The notes beneath the pieces were generated by a model, which was not told the origin of the DNA, made no database searches, and was given only the letters and a program-made list of their open reading frames with translations. The position numbers were made by a program, and so were the translations under genes. A stretch of DNA of 64,000 bases from Bilabrum cf. latius (taxonomy: Eukaryota): contig OZ237735.1 in NCBI GenBank assembly GCA_965178125.1, positions 1,798,001 through 1,862,000 of the forward strand, written 5' to 3'. Below, one piece after another: positions 1-64,000 of this stretch. Within the stretch, counting starts at the first letter, position 1. Each line of letters opens with the position of its first letter.

Positions 1-3000
1 GCCGAGCACCTCTCTGGAACAGTCAACTTCCGCTCAGGTTCAAGTACGCTATTGAGACGTTCCAAGACTGCATCTTCCGCCAGCGAAACTTCATCTAGAA
101 GAAACATGCTTCCGTCAAGCATAGATTCAACCAAAGGACCATCAGCCCATTCGAATAGTTGCCTTGCGCTGTCACGACAGGACACAACAATGTCTCGTGT
201 ACGCTCAACACTCGGATCTACCTCAGATTGCGGCTCCGAGGCTGCGGCTTCGCTTCTACCAGTGGCAGTTCTGCGAACCTTGGCGGCTTGGTGCTCCTCT
301 AGCTGCTTGTCAGGCCGCTCACGCTTGTCACCCGACCTGTCGCGGTCATCATTGTCTATCAAGCGAAGCATATCATCGTAAGCCATCTAAGCAAGGTGGT
401 CGAGCTCAGGTGGGGAGTCATCGCTAGTACGGGACAAGTATGCAAACACGGCAGTAGCGGCATCGTACTTAAGTTGCCTTCGTCGTTGAGCTCGAAGCGG
501 GCGCATGCTTCCGATAAAATCCGTAGCGTCCATCGTCTAGTGGCAATTGACAATGCGAAGAGCCTGGTTCCTCAGCTTTGCGACAAACTGCACAGCACTG
601 GTTTTACCTGTCCCAGTTTCTCCGACTAAAAGTACTGGTTCCTTGTAGAACATGCATTTAACGAGAAGCGCAACGACTCGCCTAAGCTGCTGGGTCCACG
701 TCAGGTCTGGGAGCTCCTTCGAGTCCATGGTATCCGCAACCCTGCTATTGGACGTAGTAGAGGGGCTTGCTTGAGCGGGAGCAGACGCTGCTTTGTCGCC
801 GTGCGCATACAAAGCAGGGTCTCCATACAGATCTGATGGACATAACGAGCACTTGCAGGTTCTTTGCAACACATCCATCAGCACGTTTTGCTCATCCTTG
901 ACACGCAGCCGTTCTGCCAAGAGCATGTACCCACTGCAGCCAAGTTCTTGCCAAGTTGACGGCACACGGGCAGCCCAGCGCAGTAGGTCCCGTGTAGTAA
1001 CGAACGAAGTGCTTCCAGCAAATACGTCAGAAGCCTGCCGTGCACGCCGAAGCTCAGCAGCGACTCGAACCATTGCCTCAGCAAACGGAGGTGCAATATG
1101 AGACGACTTCACGATAATCTCCTTGAGCTCACTCTCAGGTGCCTCATCTACACGAAGTTCAAAAAATCGATTTCGAAACGCTCGGCTGAGGGGCTTCCTT
1201 CCACCGTATGTGCCGCCGGCCGGGTTCTAGGTTGCGAATAGCCTGAACCGCGGGGAAGCTCGCACAACCTCCTGAGTCTCCGGGATATAAAGCTCCCGAT
1301 TGTCGTCCAACAATCGGTTCAAAGCTTCTAGAACTTCTGTAGGTGCAAGGTTTAGCTCATCTAGCACAAGCCAAGCGCCCTACCTCGCAGCTGCGACCAG
1401 TACCCCCTCCTTAAACTCCAAAGAACCAGCACCAGTTGGCTAAAAAGAACCAAAATACTCACTAATATCAGTATTCTAGTGGTTGTTCACCCTATAGCAC
1501 ATGTTTCCGGTCCGGGCGGCGAGGTACTCAACAAGAGAGGTTTTGCCTGAGGAAGTGGGTCCCTGCAGGAGCACAGGAGACTTGGAACACGCTACGGCCC
1601 GGGCAAGGTTACGCAGATTGAATTGTACGCTCGCGGTCATGACATACCTGCGCTGTCCAGCTGCATCGTCTGCTGAGAACCCAGCTGCCCAATCGAGTGG
1701 CTCAGAATCACCGGTGGCTATGTCGAAGCAGTCAATTAAAACGCCGCTAGCCCGTACTTCTGGCACAGACATGTCACCGGGGAGGTTCGACACTGCAGAG
1801 TGGCAGGCGAGTACTAGCTAAGCATATCCAGCAGAATCGGTACCCGATGATCGAAGCTCACGCAAGAAGTCTATTGATTGCACGGCAGTACCTGGGCTCC
1901 CACGAGCGGTCTTCTTGGACCCCTTGGACTTGCGCTTCTTGGATTTGCCCAGGTTGGCTGTGTCTATAGCTGGCTGGATCTGCGTCGCGTACGCAGCGCA
2001 CAGCCCTTCAAACAATGCGCCTTTCGCTGATAGACCAGAATTCAGGAGCGAGCAGAATGACTTGCACGCTCGCACTAGGGTACGGAGGCTGTACTGCGGC
2101 GCCGCACCGGCACTGTCAACCAGTGCTCCTGAGAACGCCAGAACGCGCGACTTAACATGAAAACTTACGATTCCGTCGATGCATGCCGCGAGGTCAGAGT
2201 CGTCAATCGCTTCACAAGGTCGCAGTATTCCAAGAACGATGCTTTTTAGGTCATCTTCATCATCTACGTCAGAAACCCACACTTCTGTGAATCGCTGCCG
2301 AATTCCCGGTGGGAGGTCCTTCTTGCCGATATCTGTGGCAGGATTCATCGCCCCGATGAGTTGAAAGCCAGGATGGCGAGAAATAGGCTGTGAATCACCG
2401 CGTTCGGACAAGATAACAGATCCATCTTCGGATTCCAGCAAGCCAAGTAGTCGCTGGAGGGCCTCGTGAGGCGCCAAATTGATCTCATCCAACAGAATCC
2501 AGTGCCCATTCATAATGGCCTTCGTTAGGGGTCCGAGCTCAAAGCGGAATGCAGCCCCAGCACTTTCCAGAGACTTCGAGTCTTTCTTGAGGATATCAAG
2601 CATGCGCTGGAATCGTCGAAGCTCCGTGGCCCACCGATCCCACTGGATACGTACATGAGGTGATACGGTGTGGCCCCTATCAATCTTGCTTGTCGCAAGC
2701 GCGAGTGCCCGTGCCATCCCAGCCGCAAGCCGGGGGTAGTTCTTTCGGTCCAGTGCGTCGGCAAGGGAGGACAAGAACTTTGAGTTTGAGTCGCTCTTAA
2801 ACACAGATGGGAACAGCTCGCCAACCAATTCGCGGTACAAATCGAGGGCCACACGTCGAGCAGGTGCAGGCCTGTAACCGCCTAGCAAGTCTCCAATGTC
2901 GGTCTATGCGCTCATGTTGACCACGACCAACTTTGCATTCACCATCTCCGCGAGTGCCTGTACCGCTGCGGTTTTACCGTTGCCAGTTTCACCCACAAGA

Positions 3001-6000
3001 AGCATTGGTTCTCGATCCTGCACTGCGCAGGCCACTTGCTCAAGAGTCCTGCAACCCGACACTGTAGGTGCGAATGAATCTGGCAGTCCACTAGAGGCTT
3101 CCATAGCGGCTGCAGATCTAACTCCGGATGTTCGAGCAACCGGCAGAGAGGCTCGGCCAATTCGAACGCTGTCTAGATGGCTGTCAATGTGAGGGGCGGA
3201 GTAGTAGCTATCCACCAACTCCGCTGCATGAAGTCCCCACTCTGGAGAAATGGTCTCAAGTACAAGGCCAGCATCGTGCTTGTCAGATATCCGAGCGCCA
3301 TACATGTCCATGCCGTGCTTTGCAATACTTAGCCGAGCATCCGTGCTCAACGAATCCTGTCGCACTACGGAATCTTCTCCATCTGAAAACATGCAAGCGA
3401 CCCTACGTGCCCAACGTAGAGTATCATTGACTGTAAGGCGCTATCGCAGCGCTTCAATGCTAACCTATGACATCCGATCACCGGCGTCCGGTGATGCCCC
3501 CGCCGCTGTTGAAGCAAGGGCAGCAAGTCGTTCAGTCGCAATCTGTCTGGTGACTCCGGCCGACTGCACCTCGGCAAGCCGAACGAGAGACATGTGCGAG
3601 CTAACAATCCCGCGAACAGTCCTCTCGTGCAGCACAGGAAAACACCCTCTAATCAAAGATACTAACTCAGTCGTCTGTGGCGGTTGCGATTCAACAGCAC
3701 ACAGTAAATGCTGGCACCCAACCAATCGCGGCAGCGACCCAACGCTACCCGCAAGTCCAAACCGAAAGTCCGCAACCGAGTCATGTTCAGCGGCGAGCTG
3801 CGCAGCTAAGCCACTGGAAGATATTGGTTCGATGTTAGACTTATCACCAATGACATTCTAAGGAGCCCAGACTCTTGACAAAGAACCTGTCGATTCAAGC
3901 GGGAGCGGCACGTTGCTGGTCCCATCCTCTAGTTCGGTTGGGGCTCCACTGTCAGCTTGAATAGACAAAGTCGCCGTAAAGAACATGCGGAACCGTCGAT
4001 TCGCACGGGCCACCAAGGTCTCCCGCTCCTCTTGGTCTGAGAGAAGTGCAATACTGGAGGATGCAACCGCGCTGCATGCGGACTTGTGATCAGACCTGTA
4101 GCCTTGCTGCAGCTGCATAGCTGTCTGCTCTTTCCCAGGAACTTGCACGCTTTTCCCGTCCAGCAAAGGCATAATCGCTGAAACCAAGTCCGCAGAGAGT
4201 TGGTCGGCTCCCTCGAACACAATCCAGCTACCTGACCTGGCAGCCTCAAGTACGGTCCCGGCTTTCCATTCGAATTCACCGGGAGTATCAGAGACAGAGT
4301 ACTGACCGAAAAGATCCTTCCCAGAAGCAGTATCGTCAAGATGCAATGATACGACTGAGACTGGGCTAGGAGGCTGCGGCGGGATGGCCTTCGGCACAAA
4401 AGGCAAACGAGCTGACCGGGTCCATTGCAGGTGCAGCTGGTGCCGGAGCCGAGCCAAGGACTCTATACTCGATGTCTTGCCGCTCCCGCTTGGCCCATAC
4501 AAAAGAACACTTACACCTGATTCAGACTGACTCACAATGCTCCTTAGCAGGGCCAGCGTAGAGTCGTTCAGAACTACAGGGTGGCTGTCCGACTCAGTTG
4601 TTCGGTCGAGCGCGGCGCTGTCAAACGAAGACTCGCCCCAGAGAGGCACACCAGCGAGCATATCAAGTGCCTCGAAAAACGACGCATTGTCCTGGTCAGC
4701 ATGTTCGACTGACGATTCGCCGAGTCCAGTGAAGTGGGATCCTTGGGAAAGCTCGTGCTGGTGCTGCCACACTGCGTCGGGATCCAGCAGGCACTCTGCA
4801 AGATCCAGGCCATTGGTACTTTGGGCTGACGAAGCAATTATGGCAGCGGCTTCGGCAGCCTAGCAATTCAAGCTCTCAATGCGCTATTTGCGAAGCACTT
4901 CCAGAGCCGCCTCCCGAGTCCCTGTGCCCTGCCAAGACGGGTGCAGCTATCCCGGATCAACTCCAGCAAGCTGGGGCGGCAGCACCCTGAAGCACGGGTC
5001 CTATTGCAGGCAGCCCATCATGGGGCCGTGAGAGCCAACTGCTTCTTGCTATACCTAGGTATACGTTGGGTCAATCTGGCTTTGGGGACCCGATGCGGCT
5101 GCAGACGACGAGCTAGAGCTTGAGTTCACGCTGAAGCTAGGGGCGTTGCCGCCGGCGGCACCACCAGTTGCTGGGCCCGCAGCGGCGTCACTTGAGCTAG
5201 AAGCAGCAGCAGCTTCAGTATTGTGCGACGAATCGCCAGCAGAGTCTACGGCAACGTCCTAAATATCTCCGTTTCTTGAACGTTTCCGTGATTGGACGGG
5301 ACCTACCGATGCGGACTCAGGCGGAGACCACGGCACCGACGCGGCCCTGAACTGCCAGTTGGACTTAACAGCGTCGCGGGCCACAACTCTACAGTTGGAA
5401 GCGACCATTTCAAGGGCCGCAAGGGCACAGCTCTGGCAGAAAGGGTCGGCGGTCTGCATCAGGAAGTCATGGAGCTTGCTCATCGGCTGCCGGGCGATCC
5501 ACACCGGTACGACAGCAGCTGCCTGGGCACTGAACGCACCGCACAGCAAATCGTTGGGCTCTGGAACATACTATGCCTCAGCTTGGGCTGCGGCGCCGGC
5601 CGCCTCCATCCAAAGCACGGCTCCCCAAGCTACCTGCCGGGCCATCAGCAACAGGTCCTCTGCCTTGCCGCACGAACCTGGTGTCGCGGATTCAATGGCC
5701 AAATCAATGGCCCCAACCCCACGGCTACATGCATCCGCATCTACATTTAGGACTTCGATCAGCCCACGTCTCGATGCGTTCGGCACCTGTGCGAGGCGAC
5801 CGATTCCCAGGAATGCTACGCTCCTGCTCGGGCCCGCTTGCGCTGCTTGAGACGGCGGGCTGCGCGACCCAGCTGCACCCGAATCATGCTCACAGAAGTG
5901 AATCTGGTATGCACTCAGCAGAAGTTCGCTTAGTACGGGCCTGCTATGCCTAACAATAAGTGGTGCCCAAGCAGGGGACACTGCTAGTTGCGCACTTTCC

Positions 6001-6098
6001 AACGCCGCTGACTGGAGCTGAGCAAGTGTATCAGGCTTCTTATGATTGCCAGTGTGCGATTGACTTGTCTGTGAACATATGAGGGGGGCAATTACCAT
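1..6098 (-). CDS. MDN1: Midasin (Rea1) AAA ATPase, 5' part; continues beyond the left edge
   Basis: Single frame interrupted only by TAG (e.g. 537, 1227, 1476, 1818, 2904, 3858, 5259, 5571). Repeated AAA modules: GPSGSGKT, LVGETGNGKT, LQGPTSSGKTS, LVGETGTGKTS, WILLDEINLA, LDELNLAPTEVLEALNRLLDDNREL, FAT*NP..YGGRKPLSRAFRNRF, FEWADGPLV..LDEVSLAEDAVLERLNSVLE. The start ATG at 6098 is tentative. Confidence 0.93.
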
Positions 6099-6461
6099 TA
6101 AATTCGGGCGTGCGCGGTGTGAGATGGATTGGAGTGCTTCAGGTCTACCTAACGTCAACTCACGATACGCACGACCTCAGAGATGGACTTAAGAGATATA
6201 CGGCTCTCGCCTGCAGCATCATGTAATGTTTTACAGAACTAGAGCCACAACGATGCGTTCAAACGATCCATCGTTGGCAAAAAGACCGATTGTATTAGCC
6301 TGCAGTTCGATCGAGGGAACGACCACGAAGAACGTTCCTTCAGTGCAACCAAAAATCGCCGGCGGCAGCGAATAAACTTCTTCCTCAGCGAGGAACTAGT
6401 AATACCAGCAGATCTCTAGGCATACCAGTGCTGCTTGGGCTTGATAGGGTGTCGAGCAACT

Positions 6462-8900
6462 ATGAACCCGCCACACAAAGTAGGACTGTCTTTCGCTTCT
6501 AACTAGAAGCTGCCGAAATTGCCGGTACCCCCGCTCCACGGCACCTTGGCAAAATTATTAGGAAGCCTTCTTCCTCTAGCGAGATCCGCTGACGAAGCAG
6601 CGGCTGCAGTTGCGCGAGTGCTGGACTGCCTTCGCACTGGATCGTAGGCGAGACGAGCCCATCAGCTCTTGCTCCGCAAACAAAGGCTTGCAGGCCGCAG
6701 TCGTGATAGTTCAAGCGCAACAGACCATGATGAAAGCGGGTCATGGATGCTTAAATGGTGGAATCGAGAGGCGTATCTTGCCATAGATGCCCCGCTGCCG
6801 ATCAACATTTCGTATTTTATGCTCACAGCTCGTCCCCGGCAGCCTGCCAGATAGTCTGAACGCGGAGGACGACTTTCCGCTCTAATGCTTGCGTACCGTG
6901 CCGCTCTACTTTTAGAAGCAATACCTCCATCCTAGGCACGGGCGGTTCCCCTTCCGGCCGGAGGCTCAAATCCCCGCAGCAAGCGAGCAACGTTGTGCAT
7001 GCTTCCGTTTAAGCATCTGTTCCATACCTGCCGCGTACCTTGCTTACAACGTTGTGGTATGTAGCAAGACGAAGTGCACCTTGGCTGGGAAAAGCACACG
7101 AAAGCGCACGACGGGTGTGCGGCGGTCCTGGCCAGCCCAGGCAGAGCCGGGCCGGCGGAACTGGCTTCTGCCCTAGAGAAATGCCCTCCCGTCGAGATCA
7201 CCGTGCTATATAAGGGGCGCGTGGTTCTGCTTAGGGTGCCAGGCCATGTGCTTGCGTCTGCCCAGAGAGTCGCAGCCGCGTGGTTCGGCGCCGACGGGGG
7301 CAAGCCCGCTGGAGATCCTGCTCGATTGCTCGGCTCAGCCGCAGCGGACCTCGGGGAGTCTGCCTCGTGGCTATCGCGCGCGTTTGAAGATGCCAAGGAA
7401 CTAATGGAGGGCCTGCCAAAGCCGGGTGGGGATGGGGCCCCGGGCCTGGGTGCTCTCACGGCGTCTCGCCGCAGCCACTGGGCTAGGGCTTGGCCGTCGT
7501 TTGTGCGTTATGTGGGCGACGAGAGAGCCAAGTCCATCCTTGGAGCGGCTTTCACGGTGTGCTTGGACAGCCGTGAGCTTGGCGGGGACTGCTCCCGGGA
7601 GTCGCTTGGCCGCGCGCTGCTGCACGGCGACCCCGAGGCGGACGCTGCTGCTGCCACGGATCGGTGGTACGATTCCAGGCTGCAGCTCGTGACGTTCCGA
7701 AGCGGAGATGCCGGCATCGTGGCAGAGCATAGTACCACTGACGGGGCGCCTGTGGCTGAGATGCTCCACGCAGTCACGAGGGCAGAAGCACAGGTCTCGT
7801 GGCAGTCGGCGTGGCAGGGCCCGTCCTCTGGGGCAGGCGCAGATGTGGACGGGCTGGGCCTCGTGGCAAGGCCACCATCATCAGACCCAGGCGCGCGCGC
7901 GTATCTGTTGCCGGTAGTCCCGCCGATGGACGCAGGGCGACCTGCCAGTGAGTTGGCAGAGCTGCCGGAGGACTTGAGAGTTGCTGCGGCTGTGGCAGCG
8001 AGCGAGGCTGCAGCGACTGCCAGAGGCCACGTCACGAGGGAGGTTCGGCTCAAGCTGGGTGCCAAGCAGTTGAAGGGTGCAAACTGCTCCCCCGATGCTT
8101 TTGCGCAGCTGGCCATCTCGCTTGCGTGGTGCATCGCGCACGAGAAGGCTGCGATCCAGGGAGGCGTGCCGGTGGGCACCGGGGGCAAGCACGCCGACAG
8201 CCCCGATGGAGGGGACACGCCGTGGCTGGTTGCACAGTACGAGCCCGCCCAGGCTCGACGCTTCTCGGGCGGTCGCACTGCGTGCATCCGCAGCTCCACA
8301 CCCGAGCTTATGGAGGCAGTCAGCTCGTGCCTGTCCCTCTGGAGGAGGTGGCACCCCGAGGCGGCGCGCAGAGCATCGACTCTCGTACGATAGGCCATGC
8401 ACAGGCACGGCGTGCTGTCAGCCGAGGCTGCGGCGGGGCACGACGTGGACCGACACCTCTTCGGGATGCAGCAGGCGCTCGAGGAGGCGGGGGGCGGCCC
8501 TAGGTCGCAGGCGGCCGCTGGGCTGCGTCATGGCGATCTAGGGCGACTGCTGGGGGATTCGCTGGTGAGCCGCAGCGCGAAATGGAGGATCAGCACCAGC
8601 AACTTGACGCTGCCCGGCGTGTCTCTCTGGGGGTGGGGAGAGGTAGTGCCTGACGGCATCGGGGTGGCGTACAGCCTGCACGGTGCCGAGCTGCACTTTC
8701 ACGTGTGTGGGCAAAGTACTGCCAAGATTGGATAGAGCGTCAAAACGCTTGTTCGGAGGGAAATAGGAGAGGGCGTGCACGGAAGTAGCGGCCGGTCGAC
8801 CATTCCACTTGCGCTCGCGGTTGCAGACGCCCTGCCGGACGCCACTCATGTCCTGTGGCGGCTGGTTTGCGGACTGCCGAGCTCGAAGGCAAAATTGTGA
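6462..8900 (+). CDS. Carnitine/choline O-acyltransferase, probably peroxisomal (~812 aa with TAG=Gln)
   Basis: Motifs *KLPKLPVPPL..TL, WMLKWWNREAYL...PLPIN, LCM...LFHTCRVP, DRWYD, catalytic EHSTTDG, SPDAFAQLA, G.DVDRHLFG, WRISTSN, G.GEVVPDGIGVAY. One frame with TAGs only, ending ...SKAKL-TGA. An in-frame ATG at 6183 is an alternative start. Confidence 0.9.
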
Positions 8901-11174: not shown

Positions 11175-14100
11175 TCAGACGACATGCCGGGCAGTTGCAC
11201 TCCCGTTACTCACGATCGAAGGGGGTCTTGGCGGCGATACTGCGCTTGCGGCTTGCGTGCGATACTGCTGCAGGTCAGTGAGGGCTGAGTCCAGGTTGTT
11301 GCCGGCTTGCTGGGCCAGCCCATGTTGGGCTGGAGCAGGGTGGCGGCTTGCGAACGGAGCACCGTCCAACAAAGGCATTCCGCTGACGTTGGCAGCTGCT
11401 CGCTACAGTAAGGCACTTGTCTCGGTCGTCACGGTCGGCCCGCGGCCCGCCGCACCGCTTTCACGGGAGTCCAGCATGCTTCCTTGCTGCTGCTACGGAT
11501 AGCTGAAGTCGCCTTCGATCGGCGGGGCAGGCTGCATATCATGCGCCAGCAGCGGCTCTCGATAGCCCTCGTCTCCGTCAGCAGGGGCCCTCTGGCTGCT
11601 GCGAGAAGCTGATGGCTGCCTCGCGTTCTGTTCTGATTGGCTAGCAGGTAGCGACCCACCATGCTTGCCATTCCAAGCGTACGCGTACCCGAATTGGCCC
11701 GGATTCCCGTTGCCATTGGCCACGGAGCCCAACGAAGCACTGGGTTCAGGCGTTGGCTAAACTGCCTGCTGGGAGGCGACTGACCGCAACAGACTCGCAA
11801 GCTCATGGAACCGCCCGTCATCCGTCTATTGCATTGCGCTGGAGATCTGCAACAGTCGAGCATGGGGTGAGTCAGCCGCATCAGCCACTGCTGGAAGTAA
11901 GGCCTGCTACCCGCGCCCTCGCGCAGCATGTTCGATCCTCTGGGCGTCCTGCTGTGCCCGAACGATCGAGGCCCGGCGAGGCGAGGCGCTCCTGGCTCGA
12001 TGTAGGCGGGAAGCGCGGGAACGCTACTGCTCTGCAATGGCACGCCTCTGCGCATTGTACTCGCTTCGCGAAATGTCGCCGTTGTCCAAGCGGTGTCGCA
12101 GTGAATCTAGCCTCGCTCGGACAGTGGTTGCGGTTCGTGGACCCCTGGTACGGGACCTAGACGAAGCCCTGCTGCCCACGCTAGCACCACCCGCCCTGGC
12201 GCTGTGCATGCTACCCGCGCGAGACCTGGTGCGCCCAGCAGGATGCCGCGGGGTGTTGCTACCGAGTGCCACCCGCCCCACGCTTTTAGACCGAGGTAGC
12301 CGCCGAGAGGCGGCCCTGTACCTTTCGGCCGTCTAGTCCTTCACCTCTGACTCCCGGTGCAGCTGTGCCTTTGTTTTGCGCAGATGGCGGGGGACGTGGC
12401 GCTGCTGTTCCTGCTGCGAGCCCGGTCGTGGCTGCAGGGAGTACCCGGGGCTGGCAGGCCTAGCCGCGTGCCGACTGTCCCGGGAGGCAGGCCGGCTGTG
12501 GCTGCGCGGGTGGCGAATTACCTGGCTGGCCTAGCGCTAGCGCCTAGGTGAGCTTCTAGATCGCTAGTGCATGCCTTGCGATGGAGTGTGCGGACGAGCG
12601 TGGGCAGCACCTGGTTGCGTAGCTTGCAGCTGCCTGTCTCGCGCTTGCTGGGCTGCAGCCTGCCGTTGCTTCGCAGCTGCCAGCTGCTCTAGAAGTAGCA
12701 AGAGCTGCTGTCGCTTATCTGCAGCGGAGTCAGGAGCTGGTTCTCCCTACTGTAACGCAGCCGAAAGACGCCTGGCGGCAGGTGGTCCTGCCCCTTCTCC
12801 GTGCAACTGGGCCTCGCCCCTACTCGCGGGGGCCTGCGGAGGTCTAGGCGCTGCTCGACGAGGAGGGAGGCCGTAATTTCGCTCGTCATGAGAAGGGGGC
12901 GGAGGCACCTGCAGGGGAACTGCACTCGCTGGTACTGCGGAGTTCTGCTGCTGGCTGCTGCTGGCTGCGTGCTGCTGCGGGGACATATCCGGTGTCTCGT
13001 GCGGCAGGGCAGAGGCCAGAGGGGAAGGGTGCAGGTTGTTGCCCTTTGCTTGGGCGCCTTCTGGTGGCGCAAACTGCGACGGACTGGCAGCTAGACCATC
13101 GGGTCCCGCAGTTCCACCGTCGGATTGGATGTCCCGCTGCTCCGGCTCCATCGCCTTCCTCCGCAGCCGCTTGATCCGCTACTCGATACCACGCAGGTCC
13201 ATGCCTGCCAGGTGCTGCCGCAGTTCCTGCACGGCATCAGACGCACACTCGTCCGCTCTGCTTGCGCTCGCATCCAGTTCTCCTCTCAGCAGAGTGCTTC
13301 CGCTCTGTGCCACATCGGGCTGATGTTGCGTCGCTCGCATCGCGGCCTCACCGGCCCTCAGCACTGCCGCCGCTGCTTCGGGGGTGGAGGCATCGAGCGA
13401 GCCGTTTTCATGTAGCTGTGGATCAAAGCTGCCCAGTGCAGAGTCAAACACTGCGTGGTCTTTTGACTACGTGCTTCCTAGTGCCTCACGCAATTCATCA
13501 GTCGCACCGCCGGCTCCTCTAGATATCCGAGCAAACACAGCTACGATTCGGTGAGATTTCGCCGCATCATCGGCATCGATACGCAAAACTTGCTTCCGGT
13601 CATTGTCTTGAAACTTGTCGTGGGTATCAAGCAGCCTTACCAATGCTCCTTCTCTTGTAGACGCCGGATTCATGGGATCAATGGGGCCAACATCACGCGG
13701 AGCAATTCCATGTAGCACGGCCTCCTGCAAGACCATTGCAGCTCTTCCTACAGCAGCTCTAGCGTGCCGGCTTGATGCAAGATCAACGAAAGTGGAAGAT
13801 TTTGCGGTCTGTAGCAGAGAGGCTAGGGATGCTGCCAAAATCCCAGCACGTTTCTGCTGAGCCTGCTCTGATTGCTGCACACGCGCTTTGCGTTTCGCGG
13901 CATCCTCAACTTGAGCCATGGACTATCGCAATTTTCCAACCAACCTCTAAAGAAACTATGACGTGTCGTTCAAGTCTTCTTGGACAGCGTCGATCAAAAG
14001 CGATTCGCCGGCAGCAATTTGACGACTTGCTGTAGCTTCCGGCGAGATGGGCATTCGGGCTCGGCCTGCCAACACGCTCTTCCCGTAATCAATGGTTAAA

Positions 14101-14342
14101 TTCTTAGGGCTAGCATCAGTTGTACGTCTTCGCTCAAGACTGCTGACGGGCCCGGGATCCACATGCTAGCTTCGCCCTCCACTTGGTTGCTCCTTCGTCT
14201 CTCCGCCTAACGCGGCGCGCTCGGCAACAAAAATTGAATCAACTCGTTTGGCAGCTCCATGTGTTGGCAACGGAACTGATGGTCTCCTTGGGCCCCGGGC
14301 GTGCCCATTGTGAGGTGGCTCTCCGACGGATACAGCTCTCAT
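11175..14342 (-). CDS. Hypothetical protein (~1055 aa with TAG=Gln), low complexity, with a SHOCT-like motif and a possible RUN-like N-terminal region
   Basis: Eight listed ORF fragments share one frame and are joined only by TAG; ATG at 14342, TGA at 11175. RARLDSLRHRLDNGDISRSEYNAQRRAI resembles SHOCT; LQEAVLHGI resembles RUN (weak). Confidence 0.7.
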
Positions 14343-18400: not shown

Positions 18401-18422
18401 TGCACAAGAAATTAAAGTCTCA

Positions 18423-50163: not shown

Positions 50164-50220
50164 CCTCTTTGTTGAGCAGGTACGACTGAATAGCACTTGA
50201 AAGTGCAAATTGGCGGTTCC

Positions 50221-50286
50221 CCATGCGTTGTATTCGGAGCCGTAAAGATTTGTCCATGCGTTGTATTCGGAGCCGTAAAGATTTGT
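50221..50286. repeat. 33-bp tandem duplication
   Basis: ccatgcgttgtattcggagccgtaaagatttgt occurs twice, exactly. Confidence 0.95.
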
Positions 50287-50362
50287 GTCCGGGACCATTG
50301 CGTCTTTGTCACTGTCTAATTGCAACTGTACGCCGAAGGCATACCTTTGCATATCAACGAAT

Positions 50363-51865
50363 ATGTCTCGACTATTACCGCGAGTGCTGTTGCTATCAGG
50401 GCTTGCAATTAGCGTCGCTTCAAAGGTGCTGCTTGGAGCGGCATTTGTTGGCATTGTTGAGCTATGCCTGCTAACAGTGTGAGTATCTTACGATGATAGC
50501 GAATTGAGTTGCTTTACCTACTCATGCGTTCAAAGCATCGAGTCTATCCTTTTATACTTGATATAGTATTGATGCAGATTGGTATATCTGTACGGATGGT
50601 TTCCAAAAGAAGTGCGAAAGGAACGCATATCGGCATTTGGAGCGCTGCGGATAGTACTGATATTGCTATGGGATGCTGCTTGTTCGGCTGCGCTCACCGC
50701 CCCCATTTGGCTCGGCTTGTGGTGGTTTGATTTTGAGCTCGCTTCGAGTTGCGTGTGCTGGAACGCGGTGTACGTGGCACCGTTGGTGTTTTTTCTACGT
50801 CCTATCGGTGAAGCATCGGATCCAATCACGTATTGGATCGTGCGTGGCTTCTATGACTGGCCACTGCATGCAGTTGTGCTGGCATTTGGCCACAAGGCGC
50901 TCAACCGAACGTGGAGACTAAATCGCCTTGCAACTCCTCTCTGGCACGGAGTGCTTCTTGGGTCCCTTCCATTCGAGCATGACATCCATTACTTGTTGTC
51001 AAAGTTTGGAGTCCGGCTGGTTGTGAACACTTGCCTAGAGTGGCCCGGACATCCCAAGCAGTATTCGAGGGCAGGCATGCAACAAGTACGCATCCCTACC
51101 CTTGACGGGGATGCTCCGACTGCAGCCTCTGTGGCAAAGTGCCTGGACGAAGCGCTTCCACTAGCTGAGCAGCATGCTTCCAGCACAATGCGATTGTTTG
51201 ATGCAAAGGCGGCGCGGATGGAGTCACCCTCCGGAAGCTCCCAGGCCGCCGGCGAGATCGAAGCTGGGGTATACGAGGAGGGCGGCATGCAGCCAGCCAA
51301 GTCGCGCGCATCAAGCCCTTCAGAAGGCTCATAGAGCCTGGAGTTTGAAAGTGAGTTCGGCTTGGGAGGTGCAGAGCAGGATTCGGCTGGATCGAATGGC
51401 GATGCCCAGGCTTCGTCTGCCGGCAGGGTGAGTGCTGGCCAGACCTCGCACCCTGTGTTCGTGCACTGCCGGTGCGGCATGGGGCGATCGGCGTGTGTTG
51501 CTACCAGCCTCTTGCTTTGGATGCATGCATGCGATCGTTTTGGCATCGCCCTACCCCGGGCTGCTTCATCAGCATTCGTCACGCGGCGGTACCTCGAGTC
51601 GGCAGAGTGGCTTGTTGACCTGCGTAGTCGGGGCTCTGCTTCCGCAGATGGTCTTCCATCCAAGTTTGGCGGCCCACCCGTCGGATTGTACCACGGCACG
51701 ACACGCCGAGAGTCAGTGCTCAAGCAGATCCGCAAGGAGACCAAGAAGGTGGTGACTACGATCCGCATGGCGAGGCCGGAGGTGGCTGCCTCGGTAGTGC
51801 AGTACTCGGCCATCAAGGCTCTGGAGCACTACATAGCAGATGTTCTACTGGCTGGAGGGCAGTAA
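50363..51865 (+). CDS. Dual-specificity phosphatase (PTPMT1-like) with N-terminal membrane segments, 2 exons (intron 50479-50577), ~467 aa
   Basis: VLLGSLPF, GVRLVVNTCLE, QVRIPTLD, PVFVHCRCGMGRSA (CX5R), IRMARP. One TAG (51332); ends at TAA. Confidence 0.82.
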
Positions 51866-52860
51866 TTTGGAGGTGTGCAAGCAGGTGGGGCTGCAGGCAA
51901 CTTGTTAATATACACCTGCACCGCAAGACGAGCGCATGTATCGCGAATCGTACCGGATCGTGCTCGCGTGGCTCTCACCCTGCTTTGGAAGACGAGGGCC
52001 CAACCGACCGCAGATTCATGGGACAGTGTTGTGTGTCATTTATTTAGGAGAAGTATTTCAAACATTGCAATGTATCCGAATTTGACGGTGACCGAATCTT
52101 CATGCGTCCACGGGAACTTCTGCTGCAGGGCACTGGCTCACCGGACGAATTCAGACCGGCATCAGCACAGCGCATGCCACGCAGTAGATCTGCGAAACAA
52201 CAACGTCGACAGGACACTGCGACTGCCCGGTCCCCGAAACAGGGATGTCGAACAGTGTCGGCCTCAAGGCCGACGAGTAGCAGTCTTCTGCGCCCAGGCC
52301 AGCTTGGGTCCAAGCCATCATCGACGCATTTCAGAAGCACGGCAGTGGCAAATATCGACAAGTCGCTGATGCAGCTATCAAACAGACGACATCTGCAGCC
52401 AATGGGGGATCCTGTAATGCTTGCTCGGTGTTCAGTAACAAATGTGTAGACCCACCAGTTAATGGTGCTGAGAAAGAGAGCGACGGGGCACAGGACCAGC
52501 GTTAGACTCCCGCCGCGGAGTCGCGGGGGGGGGGGGGGGGGGTTGTGGTCCACTGGGTCGCCTCCCACGACCCCTGCCGGCACGGCCGATGCACCCCGTC
52601 GTCTCAGGGAAACGACTCCCTGCCAACGGGTCAATCAATTCACACAAATCTCTACATCCCAGGCAGCCCTCTTGGCTGCCTCCCCCTTCTGCTGTCGCAG
52701 TCCCATACCTAATGCGACACTGGACTCAAATTTGTCGGCTAATTGCTTTTTTAGTCCAGTTTCTCGCATGTATCACTTTTTACAAAAAATCGCTCAAACT
52801 GAAAAATCTTTAGATTTTGTAGTTTTATTCTTAGAAATGGAATATTTGCTAGAATTATTT

Positions 52861-52994: not shown

Positions 52995-53024
52995 GAGGAG
53001 GAGGGGGAACTGGGAGGGTGGGAA

Positions 53025-53377: not shown

Positions 53378-54511
53378 TCACGTCACCGCGAGCAGAAGGG
53401 CGCGCGCCAGCACCCATGCTGGCTGCTTCAACTAGAGATCTGACCCACGGAGCTCAAGAGGGGGAAGGCCCTCTCTGGCTGAACGTAGGTATACCTCACA
53501 CGAAGAAGCTGACTTCCACCGCCCGAATCGCCTGATAGTCTCGAAGGCGACGCCTGCTCGGTCCAGGCACATCACTGCAGCGATGCGGATGGAGTGGCCG
53601 TGCACCGCTTCGGCCTCGCCGAGCTGGCAGTAGCCACGGAGCACGCGGACGACAGTGGCCTTGAGCAGCGGCCGCTGCCCTACCACGAAAACCGGCCCTT
53701 GCTTGGGGCAGCTGAGCGCCAGCTGCCTCGCCGATGCACCTGCAGCCGTCGGGGCTGGGAGGACCGCTGCTGCTGCCCACGCCACGAACGCCCGGACGCC
53801 GCAGAACGCGGTGCCTGAGATGTGCCACCGTCCCGCTGCCGCCGCGACGCTGATGGGGGAGGCTGCCGTGATGGTGAACCTAGCTGGTGCATCTGCCTTG
53901 TGCAGGCCTAGCCTGATGGCGACTCCGTGGATCTTCCCTGCTCGTGCGATGAGATCGACTTGGTGCCATTGGAGTCCGTGGTGGCGCCGTGAGGCACCGA
54001 TGAGTTCACCGAGGCGTAGTCCGCCGCTGAAGCACAGCCCAATTGCTGCATGGGCTGCGTGGTGCTTGAGGTCGGGCGCACTTGCTGTGAGGCATCGTCG
54101 GATGGCTTGTAACGGTGCGGAAGACCGATGGAGGCGCTGCGTGGTGAGCGAAGCCTTGCCGTAGTATCGCAGGATGGCGTCGAGCTGGCTGGACGTGCGG
54201 ATGCCACAGGCTCCTTCGGAGTCGACGATGATGCGGAAGACGTTGCGACAATACGTGCCTATTGTTGCACCTGAGATGGGCGTGCCCTCGCCCAGGAAGA
54301 CTGCGAACCTGGCAATCGCCGCGTTGAGCCCGAACTCGAACTTGCTGCCAGCGCCTGGAATGCCTGCGTCCAGGAAGTCGCTGTCGATGTCGTAGGTGAG
54401 GACGAACTCTAGGAACCGGTGCCACGCGGTCCGGAGCCCACTGAGTCCAGAATATCCGCCAGCATGAAAGGGGCGTGCTCGGACAAGGTGTTCCAGATGG
54501 GCTCGGGGCAC
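53378..54511 (-). CDS. Tyrosine recombinase of the Ngaro element
   Basis: Catalytic set GGLRLGEL (R), HKAD (K), GHSIRI (HxxR), GRWKS (W), EVYLR (Y). If the TAG at 53432 is Gln, the ORF ends at TGA 53378. Confidence 0.9.
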
Positions 54512-55857
54512 GTGACCTGCTCCACCGCGTCGAGGTGCTGGTACGTGTGGCTCAAGCCGCGGCTCAGGCCATCTGCCACGACGTTGTCGGTCCCGGCGAT
54601 GTGCTGCACATGAAGTTGGAGGTCAGCAGTGGTCTGGAGAACGAAAATGGGGCGAAGCAGGCTGGCCATCACGGGGCTCTCAGGGCGGCAGTAACGAATC
54701 AAATCCACAGAGGCTTGGTTATCACACCACAGCTGAACCACGCGACCCTCGAGGTGTTTGCGCCAGTGCGCCACGGCTAGGAGACACGTGGCGAGCTCTG
54801 CGGCGGCCACATCCTTGGCCTCAAGCCGGTGAGTCCACGTGCCTTGAATACCCAAATGCTGTGCGCGCTGGCCGTCGGGACTAAAGGTGAGAAGCTCGGC
54901 GCCCCACCCGTCAACTGAGGCGTCCGTCAAAATGATAGGTGTGTCCACTGCGCTCTGCTGGGGGAAACTGCGCCCACCCTGCATCTTGATTGCTAACTGA
55001 AAACCTTCGAGCACGCTATCCACTGAGAAACCACCGCGAGAGAGGAAGGAGACAGGAATCCAGACCTGTTTGGAGTTGTGGCGTCGGGCCTGCTTGCTGC
55101 GTGCCCACTAGAGGGCGTCATAGAGCGTGCGCATGAAAGGCAACATACCGTAGAGTGCCGCTGCCAGGAAGTTCAACTTGCCCACAAGGGTCTCGAGATG
55201 CCGCAATGACAAGCCCCGAGCCGTTCGCGCTTGGTGCAGTCGCTGTAGGACGTCCTTGGCCTTGTCCACCGGGCAGCGTATTTCCTTACGCTGCATGTCG
55301 TACTTGTGCCCGAGGTAGTCCAGCTGGGCTGCCGGTGGCCCTTGCTTGACTGCTTTCGAGAGACTCACAGGAAAATTGGACCGCTCCAGCTGCTCGATCG
55401 CCATGGTTGCCCAAGCATCCACCTCGTGGTCCCCTCCGAAACAAGCGAAATCGTCGAGAAACACTTCATTTTCGACTGCCCAGTGGCGGGCAGGGTTGAC
55501 TACTGGCGGGGGCGTGTGTTGGCGGGGATCACGAGGTTGACGTCGCCGACGGCGACGGCGTCTGTCAGTCCCGCTCGCTCGACGGTTCGGACGCATAGCA
55601 CTCCCGATAGATCGGCGCTCGAGGGCCTGAGCCAGTGCTGTGCTGATGGATGTTGCAAAGGCCGGGGAAGAGCAGCTACCCATTGACATTCTGAAATCTT
55701 GTACCACGCGTCCGCCTGACAACGCGATGAGATTGTGCTTGACGTCTGCCCTATCCACGGGCAATACCCGGAAGTAGCTGGAGATGTCCAGCACATATCC
55801 CGTGGCTCGCTTGCCGCACGCCCTAGCGGCCGCAGCCGCGGAGCGTAGGAGAACGAG
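54409..55857 (-). CDS. Reverse transcriptase-RNase H of the Ngaro element, N-terminally truncated
   Basis: RT: LDISSYFR, MSMGSCSSP, FLDDF, YLG, LVGKLNF. RNase H: TDAS.DGWG, AEL, CDN, NVVADGLSR. The two domains are joined in frame across the TAG at 55108. The 3' end is uncertain (next TGA at 53572). Confidence 0.88.
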
Positions 55858-57360: not shown

Positions 57361-60300
57361 ATGAATGTGCCTGCATGTGTAACGATCTTTGCTACTCTAT
57401 TGGGTGCTCAAGCTTCTTCGACCCTGGAGTACCTCTCTGCAGAAGGTGCCATGCAACACCACGCAGAAGGCCAATGCCACCCGCATACTATCAAACAGTG
57501 CAATGTTATTGACGGTGACCGTTTTATGATGCGTCCAGGGGACATTCTGCTGCAGGGCAGGCGGCTGGTTACGTCAGCATTCGGTGGCGCAGACGTTCAG
57601 CTAGTGCTAGAAGACGGCGGCAAACTGCAACTTTAGGAGGTAAGGTTTTGTGTTGCCCAGCGAAGTACAATGAATTTTATGATGTTCCATTGACACGAAA
57701 GCATCCATTCGCCCGAGTCGGCTCGTTATCTCTGTGTATTCCATGTCAGCTGCCTCGTGTCACGGATGCACCTCGCAGCGCAAGGGAGACGACACATCCC
57801 CCTATTGGACTTCAGACTCGGGCGAGGCATAGTCAGCAGGACCGTTTGCCCTTTTGCTTACGTCCGATGGGGACTTGGTTGTCCTTGGGGCGGGGGGCCA
57901 GCCCAGCGAGGCCTGGCACCAGGCGGGCGATCCCTCCCCGGACGCCGTCCTGCAGGCGCTGTCCGACAGCGCAGCAGACGACAGCATCGAGGTCGTCTGG
58001 AGCCGAGTGCTATCTGGCGTGGGAACCGTGAAGGAGCTGGCACTGCACGGCTCGGGCGACCTCGTGGCGCATGACGAGCACGGCGAACGCCTGTGGCACA
58101 CCCGAACGGAGTCCACGCGCATGTGGATGAATCTGCTCATCTCCAAGCTGCGCTTCGGGGGCAAGAAATACCACAAGAATGGCGATTTTGACGGCTGGGA
58201 AAGGTACTGGGATCTGCGGCAGAGCTACTCGAGCGACCACTATAATATGGCCAAGCTATCGGGGGGCATTGCGCGGCAGCACGGGGGAGAATACTGCGGC
58301 GGCGGGGATATATCTGCGTGTGAGCCCGTGGTGGACATGAACGTGTCTTCGCTGCACCCCGGGCAGATGCTTCCGGAAGGGAGGTCCCTCTACTCGGAAG
58401 CGGTGATGCAGACTGTGGAAGGCAAGAAAATGCAGGGCGTTCGCAACGCGGTCAACTGGCTCGTTTCCGGGGCCGAGATGGAGATCAAGATCGAGACCAG
58501 GAGCGGGAAGCCATGGCTGAATGCAGCCCAGTCCAAGCTGACCATGCAGTCAGATGGACGACTGGTGCTGAGGTACAGAGAGCACGACTGCGATGCCAGC
58601 TCCTTCGAGCACATGGAGCTGGACGGCGGGGCGACTCTATGCCAGGGGTTGGAAAACTTTGACCTGCTGCCCCCCGGGAAACACTTCTGCAGATGTCTCG
58701 ATAACCCAGACCGCAACCTGCTGGCCGAGATGGAGGCGGCGGGTGACAAGTGGCATGAGGTATGGGCGACATCCGAGCAGCCGGTAGACCCAGCCAAGCA
58801 CTAGGGTCCGTTCAGTTTCGTCGTGTCCACGGGGGGCGACCTCGAGGTGGTGGACGGGCAGGGCGGGACGGTGTGGTCGCAGTCCACGGGCGATGCGGGC
58901 CCCATCCAGTGCGCTCGTATCAGCGCCATCAAGCGGCGGCCCAGGCAGGAGGACTGGGATGACGCCAACGTGAACCTGGGGGTATACCGCTCCGACGCGC
59001 AGCACAGGCGGGACATGTGCGGGCCGGAGTCACGGGGCCATCTGACCATGACGGACCCTGACCTGGTGTGGACGACGGCGGTCACCGGGAAGCCGATCCC
59101 TGGCATCCCCGTCAGGACCAAGAGCGTGCAGCTGCAGCTCGCCGTGGCGCGCACCGACGACCCCATGCGGCCCTACTGCGGGGCGGACTACCTGGAGCTG
59201 TGCGAGGAGGTGCCTGAGGGTGCTGACGAGATGCGTCCTGGGCAGGTGCTGCGGCAGGGTCGGGCTCTTCGTACTGACATCGGTGAACTCGTCATGCAGA
59301 CGGACGGCAACCTCGTGCTGCATCTGGGCACGGTTCGAAAGAAGGTCCTGTGGTCCTCCAAGACGCCCCCCGGGCATAGCGATGCCATCAAGCAGGTAGG
59401 ACCATACGCGCTTGTGTTCACGTACCGGGCCGAGCTCGCCATCGTGGACGGGCGAGACGGCGTGCTCTGGTTCGTCGACGGTCCCGCCCTGTACATCAAC
59501 TGGATCAAGCCGACCTAGTACGTTGGCCTGGACAAAATGTTCTCACCGGCGACCTTTCTGGTGGACGCCTTCGACCGGGGACTGGGGGCTGCCTTTACCG
59601 GAAATGTCGTGGCCTCGCTCTACACCTCCAACGTGATTGAGGTGCACAAGTGGAGGTTCCGCCTGCAGAGTGACGGAAACGCCGTGCTGTTTTGCAACGG
59701 CAACAAGCCAGTCTTCCGAACGAATACGGCGGGGTGGCACACGGAGGATGACGAGTGGCCGCAGGCGGTGCTGAGCGAGGACAACGTCTACGGAGACGCG
59801 TGGACTCGGTTCGATCCCAGGAGCGGGGACTCCTTCTTTTAGTGGAACAAATTCGCGGTGCAGTTTGGGGTGGAGATAGCTGGCGATATCGCCGTGGGCA
59901 TCGCGTCCGGGGGCATGGTCACTGCTGCCAAGTATGGTGCTAAGGGCATCAAGGCCGTGTACCGGGTGGGACTGAGCAAGGCCCTTCAGGAGGGGCTCAA
60001 GAGCGGCGACGAGTGGCTCGTGAAGATGTCCCTCAAGTCGAGCGGCAAGTGGGCCAGTAAGTCCGCCTCACTGGAGATGGGCACGCTCCTCAAGTTGGCG
60101 GGCAAGTCGGTCAAGACGTGGGCCGAAAAGAAGGTGCTCACGGTTGTCAGTAGCCTAGGCTCGCTTCTAGACGGGGCCAAGCAGGCACTGTACCGCCTCT
60201 CGAAGGCCAGCATAGGCAGCGTGGCAAAAGGGCTGGTCGCGGGGGTGTTCAAGGTGGCATTGCAAGTGGGCTACGTTGCGTTCCGGATCACATTCGCTGT

Positions 60301-63300
60301 GGGCAAGCTCATCATTACGATGCCGTTTGAGATGATTCGCCCGTGGGGCGAGATCGGCGTCTCCCAGGTCAAGGCCATCTGTTTGCTGGCGGATGCGGCG
60401 AGCAACGGGATTCTCGCCGAAGCCGTCCGATCCGTGCCCTTCAAGCTCCGTAACAGGGCCATCCTGTCTGCCGAGGAGGCCGTGGTGCATGACGTCATGG
60501 CGAGGTCTGCCTCCGACGCCATGGATAGGATGGAGCGCGGCTCCTTCAGCGTCGGAAGCGTACCCAAACGGTCCTATAGCGTCCCCGACATGCCCAAGTA
60601 CAAGCGATCCAGCCTATTCAAAGACCTGGAGGACATTGAGTTCCTGCCCCAGGCCCCCGGCGGGTCCGGGGGGGGGCTCGGCCTCGACCTGGGACCCAAG
60701 GGGGACATCCTGGAGCAGCCAAAGATCCTTGATGACTACATCGGGAAGCAGATTGTGAAGCTGCCCGAGCTGCCTCCCGCCTCTGAGCTCAAGATCCCCG
60801 AGGGCTTGCCGGAACCATTCGCACGGCGCATGGAGACAGCTGTGGACAAGGGTGGAAGGGCTCAAGCCGACACCGAGAGGCTGATCAAGGCATAGCCGCA
60901 GGTTCTGGAGACGTATTCTATGGAGAGGCTGGTCGAGGTGAACAGGCTCATGTATGATAACCAGGCCACACTGGAGTACTACGCTGCCGTACGAGACTAC
61001 GTGGGGCACCTGGATCGCATGCGGCTGCAAGGGAAACCGCTCCCCGATGGCTTTACCTCCGTGGACGATTTGGTGGCCTCCAAGTTCGGCATGGGTCGGG
61101 CGGCGATCGAGCAGACGTTCCAGTCGCGCCTGATGGCGGACGTCACGGCATGGGGAGCACCTGCCGGGCTGGAGGCAAACATGTTGAGCGAGCTCGTTGA
61201 AGTGGTCGGATTACTTGACTTGGATAAGCTGGCGTTCCAGCAGTACCAGGCTGCTGCTGATGCGCTTGGTGTGGTGCAGCGGGCGCTGCGTGGGGAGGAG
61301 GCGGTGGACAGGGCAGCGTTGGTGGATGCGATACGGAGTCAGCCTCAGGAGCTGCGATTGGCGGCAGAGGTGCTGCAGCCCGACATCGCAGCACGGGCAA
61401 TGCAGGACCCGGGACTCGCCGCCGATCAAGTCCTTGCTATGGCGAAGGAGAATCCTGAGGCCGCTGGCCAGCTTGCCCAGGCGTGCGAGTCCTCCATGAA
61501 GGAGCAGCAGCGGCTGGCCGCGAGCAAGCAGAGGCAAATTAAGAAAGCTGAAACCAAGCTCCGGGAGGACAGCCCCCTGGTAAAGCATCCGGATGCCCGG
61601 CTCTACGAGGTGGCCGTGCAGGAGGCAGGTCAAGAGCGGGACGCGTGCATACTGACCACGCAGCTGGGCCTCGAGGTGGGCGGCGATCCCAGCACACCCG
61701 CAATGGTCTTGAACGGATTCTAGTCACATTTTGCCGGATTAGAGGCAGCCAAAGACGAGACGATCGTGGCCCTTCGAAGGGCAGCGGAGGCAGAGGCCAA
61801 GCTGGAGCGCCTGGAGATGGCCAGGGCGATTGCCGATGCGGCCGCTGTGGGCAAGGCGGACCCTTCGGTTGCCATTAAGACCCTGGGCGTGGACGTCCCC
61901 GAGGCTGAACTGGACAATGCCATCAAGGCTGCATCGGAGAAGTGGGATGCCGCACGGAAAGAGGCGATCGATCACCTGGACTTGGAGGGGAAAGGCATGG
62001 ACGATCTGGGTCACCTCCTGGAAGATGAGGGCATTCGAGACATCACGGACGAGCTGCTGGACGCCGTGGAGCAGCATGCGGGCCTCTTCAAGGAGCTCGA
62101 GGCGAAGGAGGAAAGCGCCAAGGGCGTGACTATTGCCATTGAAGGTTCCATCGAGCACATCCTCCTGGGAGAACACGCGGCGCAGGAGGGGGGGCGTGCC
62201 GCGCAGGAGGCGGCAGCTGCAGCCCGCAAGGCCAGGTTAGCTAAAGTGGTCAAGTCTCGAGTCCCCGTCGTCTCCCCGGCCGACATGAAGGTGCCCAAGA
62301 CTCTTCGTATCAAGTCGCCTGCCAACCCAACGGTGCACGTGGATATTGACCTGGCCGACGTGCACTCGGACTTTGTCGAGAGACTTGGCGCAATCGACAA
62401 GTACCGCGCGCATGCGCAGCTAAATGTCCCAGGAGACCGCCTCATGTTCGCATTGCAGTCCGCCGACATCGCCGAGACGGCAGAATACTATGCCAGTATA
62501 CAGAGGACAGTAAACAGGATCGACGCAAGGATGGGGACGGACGCCGGTGCGGGCGCGGCCTGGCTCAGGAAGACCCACGGCATGGATGCGTCGGCATTGC
62601 GCACGCAGGAGCAGACGTTCGCGCTGCTGGCAGAGGTCCGGGCCCGTCCCTACCCCACCGGCGAGACGGCATTCCTGCATGCAGACATCCTCAGCGATGC
62701 TATTCACAAGGGGCGCGTGGATCCTCAGGATCCAGTCCTCAAGGCGAGAGCGCAGCTCAAGAACCGAATCGGTGCGGTGGGCGGGGATTCGTTCGAACTG
62801 GGGCTCCGAGTGCTCACACTGCCCCCAGCCAAGGCTCGATCCGCGAAGCTACGTGATGCTACCGTGAGTCTCTGCGATGCCGAGCGAGAGCTGGACGAGC
62901 TGCTGCACCTCAAGCGCGTCATCGATACCGCCGAGATAGCCGGTCTTGACCCTGTTACCTGCCTGCGAAGGGGGGTGCGCACAGATTTCGTTAGCGACCT
63001 TACCATGCCCTCGGACGTGGAAAATTACCTAGCAAAGGCAGTGTAGCGGTCAAACTCTGCGAGGGAGGCGTGGAGGAGGGCGGCGGAGGCGGCGGGTCCC
63101 GGCGCCCTCGCCGATCTCCCAGGGGACGTCCTGGACCGGGCTTACCGGGTCACCGCAATGGACCCCAGCAGCGAGGTGAATCACTTGCTCGAGAGCAGAA
63201 AGCACATGGAGGTGCAGGCACTGAGTAATCCAGGTGTCTTGGGCGAACGTGTGGATCCTGCCGTGCTCTAGAAGCACGCGGGCGTCGGCGGTGCTGCTGG

Positions 63301-64000
63301 GGTGATCGCCGATCGCCGGGCGGCACTGATGTAGCGCGCTCAGGCGGGGGGCAGGCAGCTCCAGAGACAGTTGTCCGATTTCGGCGGGTGGGAGAGCATC
63401 AGGTACCAGCTGGGCAGTGTTGACTACCTCGTGTTCCTGCAGGACCTGCAAAAGCAGACCCCGGAATTTTTTGCCGAAGCTCTCATGCAGTTGCCTCGTG
63501 GTCGCACGAATGCGATCGACGAGCTGATCGGAGTCGCAGTGGGAGCGACCGACAGCGCCCGCAAAGCAGCGAGAGAGAAAATCATCCTCGGAGCCGTTGA
63601 ATCTGCGGTACAGACGGTGGGTCTGAACAAGGCACCAAGTCCGCTCTTCTTCGCGGAGAACGTCCAGCTGCTGTCGATTTTGTCCGAAGAAATGACCGCC
63701 GATACTGCCTCCAAGGAGCTTGGCGCTGCTCTGGACACCCTGGGGGATGGCATGAAAGCGCTTCGAAAGGCTGCCAGCGGCAACGCCCTGGACGATGCCT
63801 AGGCGCAGGTCATGGGAGAGGTCATGGCGAGGCTTGAGCATTACGCTTTTATCGGAGGTGTGTCCACGTCGCTGGACAAGGAACTCAAGATGTGTTTGGA
63901 TGACAAGAAATTGCTAACCGAGGTAGTCCGTGCCGCGGAGAAGCCGGGCGGTGAGGACCTGCTGGATCTTGCCGTGGCGCTTCGAGGCGCCAATGGCCTC
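57361..64000 (+). CDS. Giant secreted protein with multiple bulb-type (GNA/B-type) lectin repeats and a long helical region; continues beyond the right edge
   Basis: Signal-peptide-like start MNVPACVTIFATLLGAQASS and intron 57640-57778 (GTAAGG...GCAG). Repeats LLTSDGDLVV, LTMQSDGRLVL, LVMQTDGNLVL...LWSS.T, FRLQSDGNAVL. One frame to the window end with TAG only. Confidence 0.8.

Follow-up and report, generated by a model that had tools for sequence, protein, structure and literature searches.

We analysed a 64-kb stretch of contig OZ237735.1 (assembly GCA_965178125.1, Bilabrum cf. latius; positions 1,798,001 to 1,862,000), hereafter the window, with a focus on the codon TAG (UAG in RNA), which is a stop in the standard genetic code. 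An original prediction, made from the letters alone, held that UAG has been reassigned to glutamine (Gln) genome-wide, pointing to many in-frame TAGs in intact genes on both strands. The window has a GC content of ~57% and carries the genes and open reading frames (ORFs) given below. ORFs were defined from stop to stop with at least 100 amino acids (aa) and TAG read as sense. Each line gives coordinates, strand, product, the TAG count and stop codon where recorded, and matches in Pfam or the PDB.

3-6176, minus strand: midasin, N-terminal part and AAA ring, running beyond the window edge; 19 TAGs; Pfam AAA_5 (E 4e-72) and midasin AAA lids, PDB midasin (E 7e-268)
6153-8900, plus strand: carnitine/choline acyltransferase-like; 9 TAGs, stop TGA; Pfam (E 7e-82), PDB
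11175-14387, minus strand: 1070-aa low-complexity ORF, no family assigned; 18 TAGs, stop TGA
14586-15518, minus strand: U2 snRNP A' (U2A'; LRR_9); 2 TAGs, stop TAA; Pfam (E 3e-50), PDB U2A' (E 1e-40)
18423-32084, minus strand: giant HECT E3 ligase of 4553 uninterrupted codons; 28 TAGs, stop TGA; Pfam HECT (E 1e-60)
32327-32887, plus strand: lumazine synthase, exon after intron 32326-32429; 3 TAGs, stop TGA; Pfam (E 4e-49), PDB
33004-36279, minus strand: CBS-domain gene, two ORFs joined by intron 35402-35539 (joint seen in a contig of run X5, see below); 7 TAGs, stop TGA; Pfam CBS
36284-37915, plus strand: weakly cyclin-like ORF; 10 TAGs, some probably in the leader; Cyclin_N (E 0.018, below the Pfam cut-off)
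37916-39463, plus strand: ERI-type 3'-5' exonuclease; Pfam RNase_T (E 6e-15), PDB alignments
39777-44639, plus strand: 1620-aa ORF, no family assigned, with intron 39753-39839; 12 TAGs
44752-47868, minus strand: O-GlcNAc transferase (OGT; TPR + GT41), with intron 47823-47912 and, further upstream, intron 48040-48126; 9 TAGs, stop TGA; Pfam (E 6e-155), PDB human OGT (E 3e-252)
48466-50163, plus strand: ACTMAP-like protease ORF; 2 TAGs, the one at 48826 directly before VGPCCG; Pfam (E 1e-7)
50573-51865, plus strand: dual-specificity-phosphatase-like, with intron 50479-50577; 1 TAG, stop TAA; Pfam
53572-55857, minus strand: 761-aa ORF with a weak RT-RNase H-like match; 5 TAGs; RT_RNaseH (E 0.005, below the cut-off)
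57683-64000, plus strand: 2106-aa ORF running beyond the window edge; 10 TAGs; B_lectin (26.5 bits against a cut-off of 32.4, sub-threshold)

An EamA transporter is also among the TAG-containing genes with long ORFs. The CBS-domain gene is made of an 827-aa orphan ORF and a 247-aa CBS ORF that are in frame across the 138-nt intron. The label 'cyclin' given in the original prediction is weak, as the Cyclin_N match lies below the Pfam cut-off.

In the window, TAG frequently occurs in frame within genes that are intact, transcribed and spliced. Under the standard code, the longest ORF reaches 584 aa; with TAG as sense, the longest ORFs are 4553, 2106, 2058, 1620, 1070 and 1038 aa. Reading TAA as sense instead leaves the longest ORF at 584 aa (zero gain), and reading TGA as sense extends it to 983 aa at most. 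Thus, the great lengthening of ORFs when TAG is read through, to which TAA adds nothing, marks TAG as a sense codon, and we are next to certain that this holds for the genes of the window. Both other candidates were rejected: TAA, besides bringing no ORF gain, ends two genes here and a related OGT described below, and TGA, with its longest ORF of only 983 aa, ends 12 genes. The proposed abundance of in-frame TAG was borne out, with 137 TAGs among the 18,319 codons of 17 ORFs taken as genes (7.5 per 1000), and at least one TAG in 16 of them. These TAG counts are upper bounds, since stop-to-stop ORFs take in some 5' leader or intron sequence; by the same definition, the absence of in-frame TAA and TGA is a consequence of how ORFs were delimited. 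The same 17 ORFs hold 549 CAG and 185 CAA codons, so that TAG makes up ~16% of the Gln-type codons. TAG-bearing ORFs lie on both strands, Pfam domains and PDB alignments continue across the TAGs, and the six introns found in the window remove none of the TAGs examined.

The ends of genes tell the same two stop codons apart from TAG. Among 14 complete genes, TGA is the terminator of 12, TAA of two (U2A' and the phosphatase-like gene) and TAG of none. An apparent TAA end of the CBS ORF sits within intron 35402-35539. Together with the ORF lengths, these gene ends indicate that UAA and UGA terminate genes and are not read as sense.

What TAG encodes was assessed from alignment columns. Homologs were aligned in the coordinates of the query, and an X was placed at each TAG to keep the query from biasing the alignment. 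The homolog sets comprised 120 sequences for midasin, 24 of 150 representatives for OGT (at least 42% identity) and 16 for HECT. Log-odds per residue were summed per codon over well-occupied columns, and codons with at least five columns served as controls. When midasin, OGT and HECT were pooled, 59 of the 60 control sense codons were decoded correctly. TAG scored +3.8 for Gln (Q), followed by lysine (K) and glutamate (Glu, E), both at -13.8; leucine (Leu) scored -14.3 and serine (Ser) -15.8. In columns conserved at 0.9 or more, TAG falls on Q three times and on E once, CAG/CAA falls on Q four times and on R once, and GAG/GAA falls on E in 24 of 24 cases. The columns at TAG are therefore enriched for Gln, and the meaning of TAG fits Gln, by far the best-supported residue.

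Individual sites illustrate this signal. All seven TAGs singled out in the original prediction (1227, 537, 2904, 45754, 38447, 32789 and 48826) are indeed TAG, written CTA for minus-strand genes, in the frame that had been given, and for those in midasin, OGT, ERI and lumazine synthase the proposed coincidence with conserved Gln is upheld by column or PDB evidence. The informative sites are as follows, together with a further lumazine synthase TAG.

1227-1229, minus strand: midasin FAT-x-NP, residue 1650; Gln in 100% of 120 homologs
2904-2906, minus strand: midasin NMSA-x-TD, residue 1091; Gln 0.94 in the column
537-539, minus strand: midasin NCH-x-T, residue 1880; Gln 0.61 in the column
45754-45756, minus strand: OGT NFN-x-IYK; Gln 0.94 in 24 homologs, and TAG in the related contig L001
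32789, plus strand: lumazine synthase LTEQ-x-A; Gln in 5 of 5 PDB alignments
38447, plus strand: ERI LTGIT-x; aligned to the Gln of LTGITQ in human ERI1 and ERI2 (PDB)
32576, plus strand: lumazine synthase; T or S in homologs

Other genes said little. The 16 HECT homologs span too few TAG sites to inform, a homolog search for the carnitine acyltransferase at E 1e-30 gave none, and PDB pairs for this gene, which has nine TAGs, show D and K at two aligned sites.

Codon-level evidence came from relatives. A metagenome scan with a TAG-free part of OGT as query yielded L001, a 3.5-kb metagenomic contig (1-3548; 50% GC) whose OGT is 80% identical to that of the window over 775 aa and has eight in-frame TAGs. 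Its stop is TAA, located no more than three codons from the end of the alignment. Both OGTs have TAG at two sites, including the invariant NFNQ site. At the eight positions where TAG in one OGT faces a sense codon in the other, the partner is CAG/CAA in five cases and TCG, CGC and GCC in the remaining three; on a rough estimate, with Gln codons at ~4% of OGT codons, five of eight would arise by chance with a probability of ~6e-6. GAG/GAA never stands opposite TAG in the pairs between the window and L001, whether in OGT or in the 1620-aa protein. L001 also keeps the gene order of the window, with OGT convergent with a C-terminal homolog of the 1620-aa orphan, a protein that evolves fast (126 of 290 residues identical between the two). 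The use of UAG as sense is hence a trait shared with a related organism.

Five more distant OGTs (L005, L002, L003, L004 and L006; 58-62% identity) contain no TAG in 778-1286 codons. They have mostly CAG/CAA at the TAG sites 36, 61, 705, 755 and 997, and all five of these standard-code relatives have CAG/CAA at the NFN-x-IYK site. The next-closest OGT after L001 is that of L005 (60% identity, no TAG in 1286 codons), which, judged on its OGT alone, is a candidate standard-code sister lineage. L005 comprises 12.7 kb of a 33-kb contig with 69% GC and shares its series of metagenome collection entries with L001. As a side observation, the GC content is 50% in L001 and ~59% in the OGT region of the window, that is, base composition has shifted between relatives that both use TAG.

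For the interval 32001-52000, we compared the window with contigs from four runs, each of a different study, and all of them matched it with no other letters and no indels. X1 gives a 130-kb genomic contig without differences that may be the source assembly and hence is not independent. X5 and X7, from two other studies, provide gene-sized contigs with six canonical joints, whose ends read GT..AG where the gene is on the plus strand and CT..AC where it is on the minus strand; the stretches skipped at these joints are the six introns given with the genes above. Because of the spliced joints, X5 and X7 are taken as RNA. The listed pieces of X5 cover 40 of the 46 in-frame TAGs in this interval and those of X7 cover 17 of the 46. 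Since these spliced contigs keep the TAGs, UAG is present in mature transcripts, and the contigs argue against both editing and assembly error.

On this evidence, we consider it highly likely that UAG encodes Gln, with UAA and UGA as stops (NCBI table 15), in the nuclear DNA of a gene-dense, intron-poor eukaryote. The log-odds, the conserved columns, the PDB alignments and the codon pairs with L001 all support the Gln assignment put forward in the original prediction. As for its genome-wide extent, the claim stands for the 64 kb of the window and the 3.5-kb L001 contig, and the rest is extrapolated. Several observations nevertheless weigh against this reading. TAG entered the pooled test in 10 columns only, and the sole failed control is itself a Gln codon, CAA (R 4.7 versus Q 1.0 in 16 columns); Gln signals are therefore inherently weak, and the misdecoding of CAA probably reflects weak Gln conservation. 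Many TAGs in variable columns stand opposite K, R, V, L, T or D; a polar residue under weak conservation would be expected to show such a mixture, which is uninformative. In the 1620-aa protein, only one of the seven pairs of TAG with a sense codon in L001 is CAG. That X5 and X7 derive from RNA is deduced from splicing, since no record lists their libraries as RNA, and contigs drop rare variants, which leaves room for partial editing. The 14 gene ends are a small sample that would still allow occasional UAG termination. In addition, neither tRNA-Gln(CUA) nor eRF1 was seen, and the tRNA scan found no tRNA genes in the window, L001 or L005. Finally, two TAGs fall on conserved Glu; the original prediction had missed both.

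1476-1478, minus strand: midasin NNH-x-NTD, residue 1567; Glu 0.97 of 120 homologs
32861, plus strand: lumazine synthase AV-x-MA; Glu in 5 of 5 alignments shown

An alternative in which UAG encodes Glu, or is decoded now as Gln and now as Glu, draws its strongest argument from these two sites, and UAG=Glu is known in one ciliate (PMC11687900). We read both sites as Glu-to-Gln replacements; the equivalent of midasin residue 1567 in other midasin AAA modules is Gln. A Glu meaning is also at odds with the pooled score of Glu compared to Gln, with Glu codons that sit on conserved E in every one of 24 cases where TAG sits on conserved Q in three of four, and with the lack of any TAG paired with GAG/GAA in L001, so that we judge it very improbable. 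Somewhat less remote, yet unlikely, is a dual meaning in which UAG encodes Gln inside genes and acts as a context-dependent stop at some gene ends, as in some ciliates. Rare TAG termination could indeed escape a set of only 14 complete gene ends; against it, TAG ends none of them, the L001 OGT closes with TAA right at the end of the alignment, and TGA and TAA serve as dedicated stops. The least credible alternative keeps TAG as a stop and attributes the pattern to pseudogenes, programmed read-through, U-to-C RNA editing or a systematic C-to-T sequencing error. Nothing speaks for it beyond the general expectation of a standard code. The 137 TAGs lie in 17 ORFs that include essential genes and are free of TAA, TGA and frameshifts, the spliced contigs of X5 and X7 as well as a fourth run repeat these TAGs with no other letters, and the TAG at the invariant NFNQ site is common to a relative that is only 80% identical. 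We therefore rejected all four causes, which are contradicted by the TAG counts, the contigs and L001, and hold the chance of a surviving stop function of this kind to be minute.

If UAG is read as Gln, the change would most simply involve a tRNA-Gln(CUA), a mutated copy of tRNA-Gln(CUG), that decodes UAG, along with an eRF1 that may no longer recognise UAG efficiently. Changes between CAG and TAG would since have drifted as synonymous, which would explain why TAG accounts for its share of the Gln-type codons. These steps are modelled on other stop-to-Gln lineages (general knowledge and the part of PMC11687900 consulted).

The locus is nuclear, given its spliceosomal introns and a U2A' gene. 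Midasin has no close relative, its best homologs being 34-48% identical, and a midasin tree of 28 rows places the window outside plants plus Amorphea (SH-aLRT 94), with no resolved order relative to an oomycete. For HECT, the best named match is Cafeteria roenbergensis, with 35% identity over 43% of the queried part, and the named sequence most similar to OGT is that of Aureococcus (60%). In a quick OGT tree of 32 rows, the window and L001 (SH-aLRT 100) join L005/P0150 (100), all within a 15-row clade (SH-aLRT 95) that holds Hondaea and Aureococcus; the OGT of Bicosoecida sp. CB-2014 falls outside that clade. The host appears to be neither a plant, an animal, a fungus nor an amoebozoan. It is probably a stramenopile, the placement we favour from single-gene comparisons and the quick tree. 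The guess of a stramenopile or bicosoecid made in the original prediction thus gains from the OGT clade and the Cafeteria HECT match and is held back by the position of the Bicosoecida sp. CB-2014 OGT; it stays tentative.

Our literature searches retrieved no nuclear UAG reassignment in stramenopiles or bicosoecids, in agreement with the statement of the original prediction that none was known; subscription journals and supplements lay outside their coverage. Only a handful of cases in which UAG and UAA differ in meaning are described in the part of PMC11687900 consulted, among them Scotinosphaera, which reads UAG as Ser, and an uncultured rhizarian together with certain phyllopharyngean ciliates, which read it as Leu. 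In these lineages, UAG is uncoupled from UAA, as it is in the window; the residue differs, since Leu and Ser score far below Gln here. The closest parallel is the UAG-only Gln code (table 15) of ciliates, where likewise only UAG is reassigned, and to Gln. Unlike ciliates, the window is GC-rich and combines long genes with short introns of the canonical type; its OGT falls with stramenopiles, and its genes end mostly in TGA, whereas ciliate genes end mostly in UAA. NCBI table 6, in which both UAA and UAG encode Gln (ciliates, hexamitids, ulvophytes, oxymonads and aphelids), has the change from stop to Gln in common with the window and presumably arises from mutated tRNA-Gln genes; in the window, by contrast, TAA is not sense, and it is a terminator here and in the L001 OGT. 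Phages of the crAss-like group also use code 15 with TAG as Gln (PMC9523058, consulted in part), but there the code belongs to phage genomes that carry suppressor tRNAs of their own, in contrast to a eukaryotic nuclear locus with spliceosomal introns.

UAG=Gln in the window probably represents a new independent origin, with the standard-code-like sister L005 close by. Somewhat more speculative, and to our minds a little short of probable, is that this is the first nuclear code change in stramenopiles, a recent UAG-only switch to Gln in a GC-rich, bicosoecid-related heterotrophic flagellate lineage that at least two sampled relatives, the window organism and L001, share and L005 lacks. If true, the transition would be framed by near relatives that keep the standard code and represented in several public data sets of both DNA and RNA, and the tRNA and eRF1 steps of stop-codon capture would become directly traceable. 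Nuclear code changes are rare, and a split in meaning between UAG and UAA is rarer still. In particular, an independent case that is GC-rich and outside ciliates puts ideas on the origin of such changes to the test, for example codon capture driven by AT pressure as opposed to passage through ambiguous intermediates. A practical cost comes with it: annotation under the standard code would truncate most of the long genes and seed protein databases with fragments. As the organism or its close kin occurs in runs of several studies under different labels, such mis-translation could spread.

The occurrence in public data can be described further. The OGT stretch is present at 92-100% of its words in runs X1-X8, which come from four studies and carry four organism labels; this suggests that some of those runs contain the organism as a contaminant or as a protist grown in co-culture.

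Some minor features of the locus complete the picture. The six introns are short (87-138 nt), of the GT-AG type and all near the 5' ends of genes, and long gene bodies are intron-free (e.g. the 13.7-kb HECT ORF). Contigs break at a short repeat located at 49074-49118, a Ser/Thr-rich run of the ACTMAP-like gene, and at 50220-50254 one contig of X5 skips 33 nt through a repeat; both look like assembly effects and not splicing. A PDB search up to E 1 found no relative of the ACTMAP-like ORF, and Rfam gave no matches at gathering score in the window, rRNA included. The 761-aa ORF with the RT-RNase H-like match has no PDB match and sub-threshold Pfam matches only; it has a Ser/Arg/Gln-rich tail and is possibly a decayed retroelement. 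The 2106-aa ORF appears as a large orphan protein with repeated segments. Between U2A' and HECT, the ~2.9 kb at 15519-18422 are AT-richer and contain no ORF of 150 aa or more, and the GC content of the 16001-20000 bin is 46.5%, compared to ~57% elsewhere in the window.

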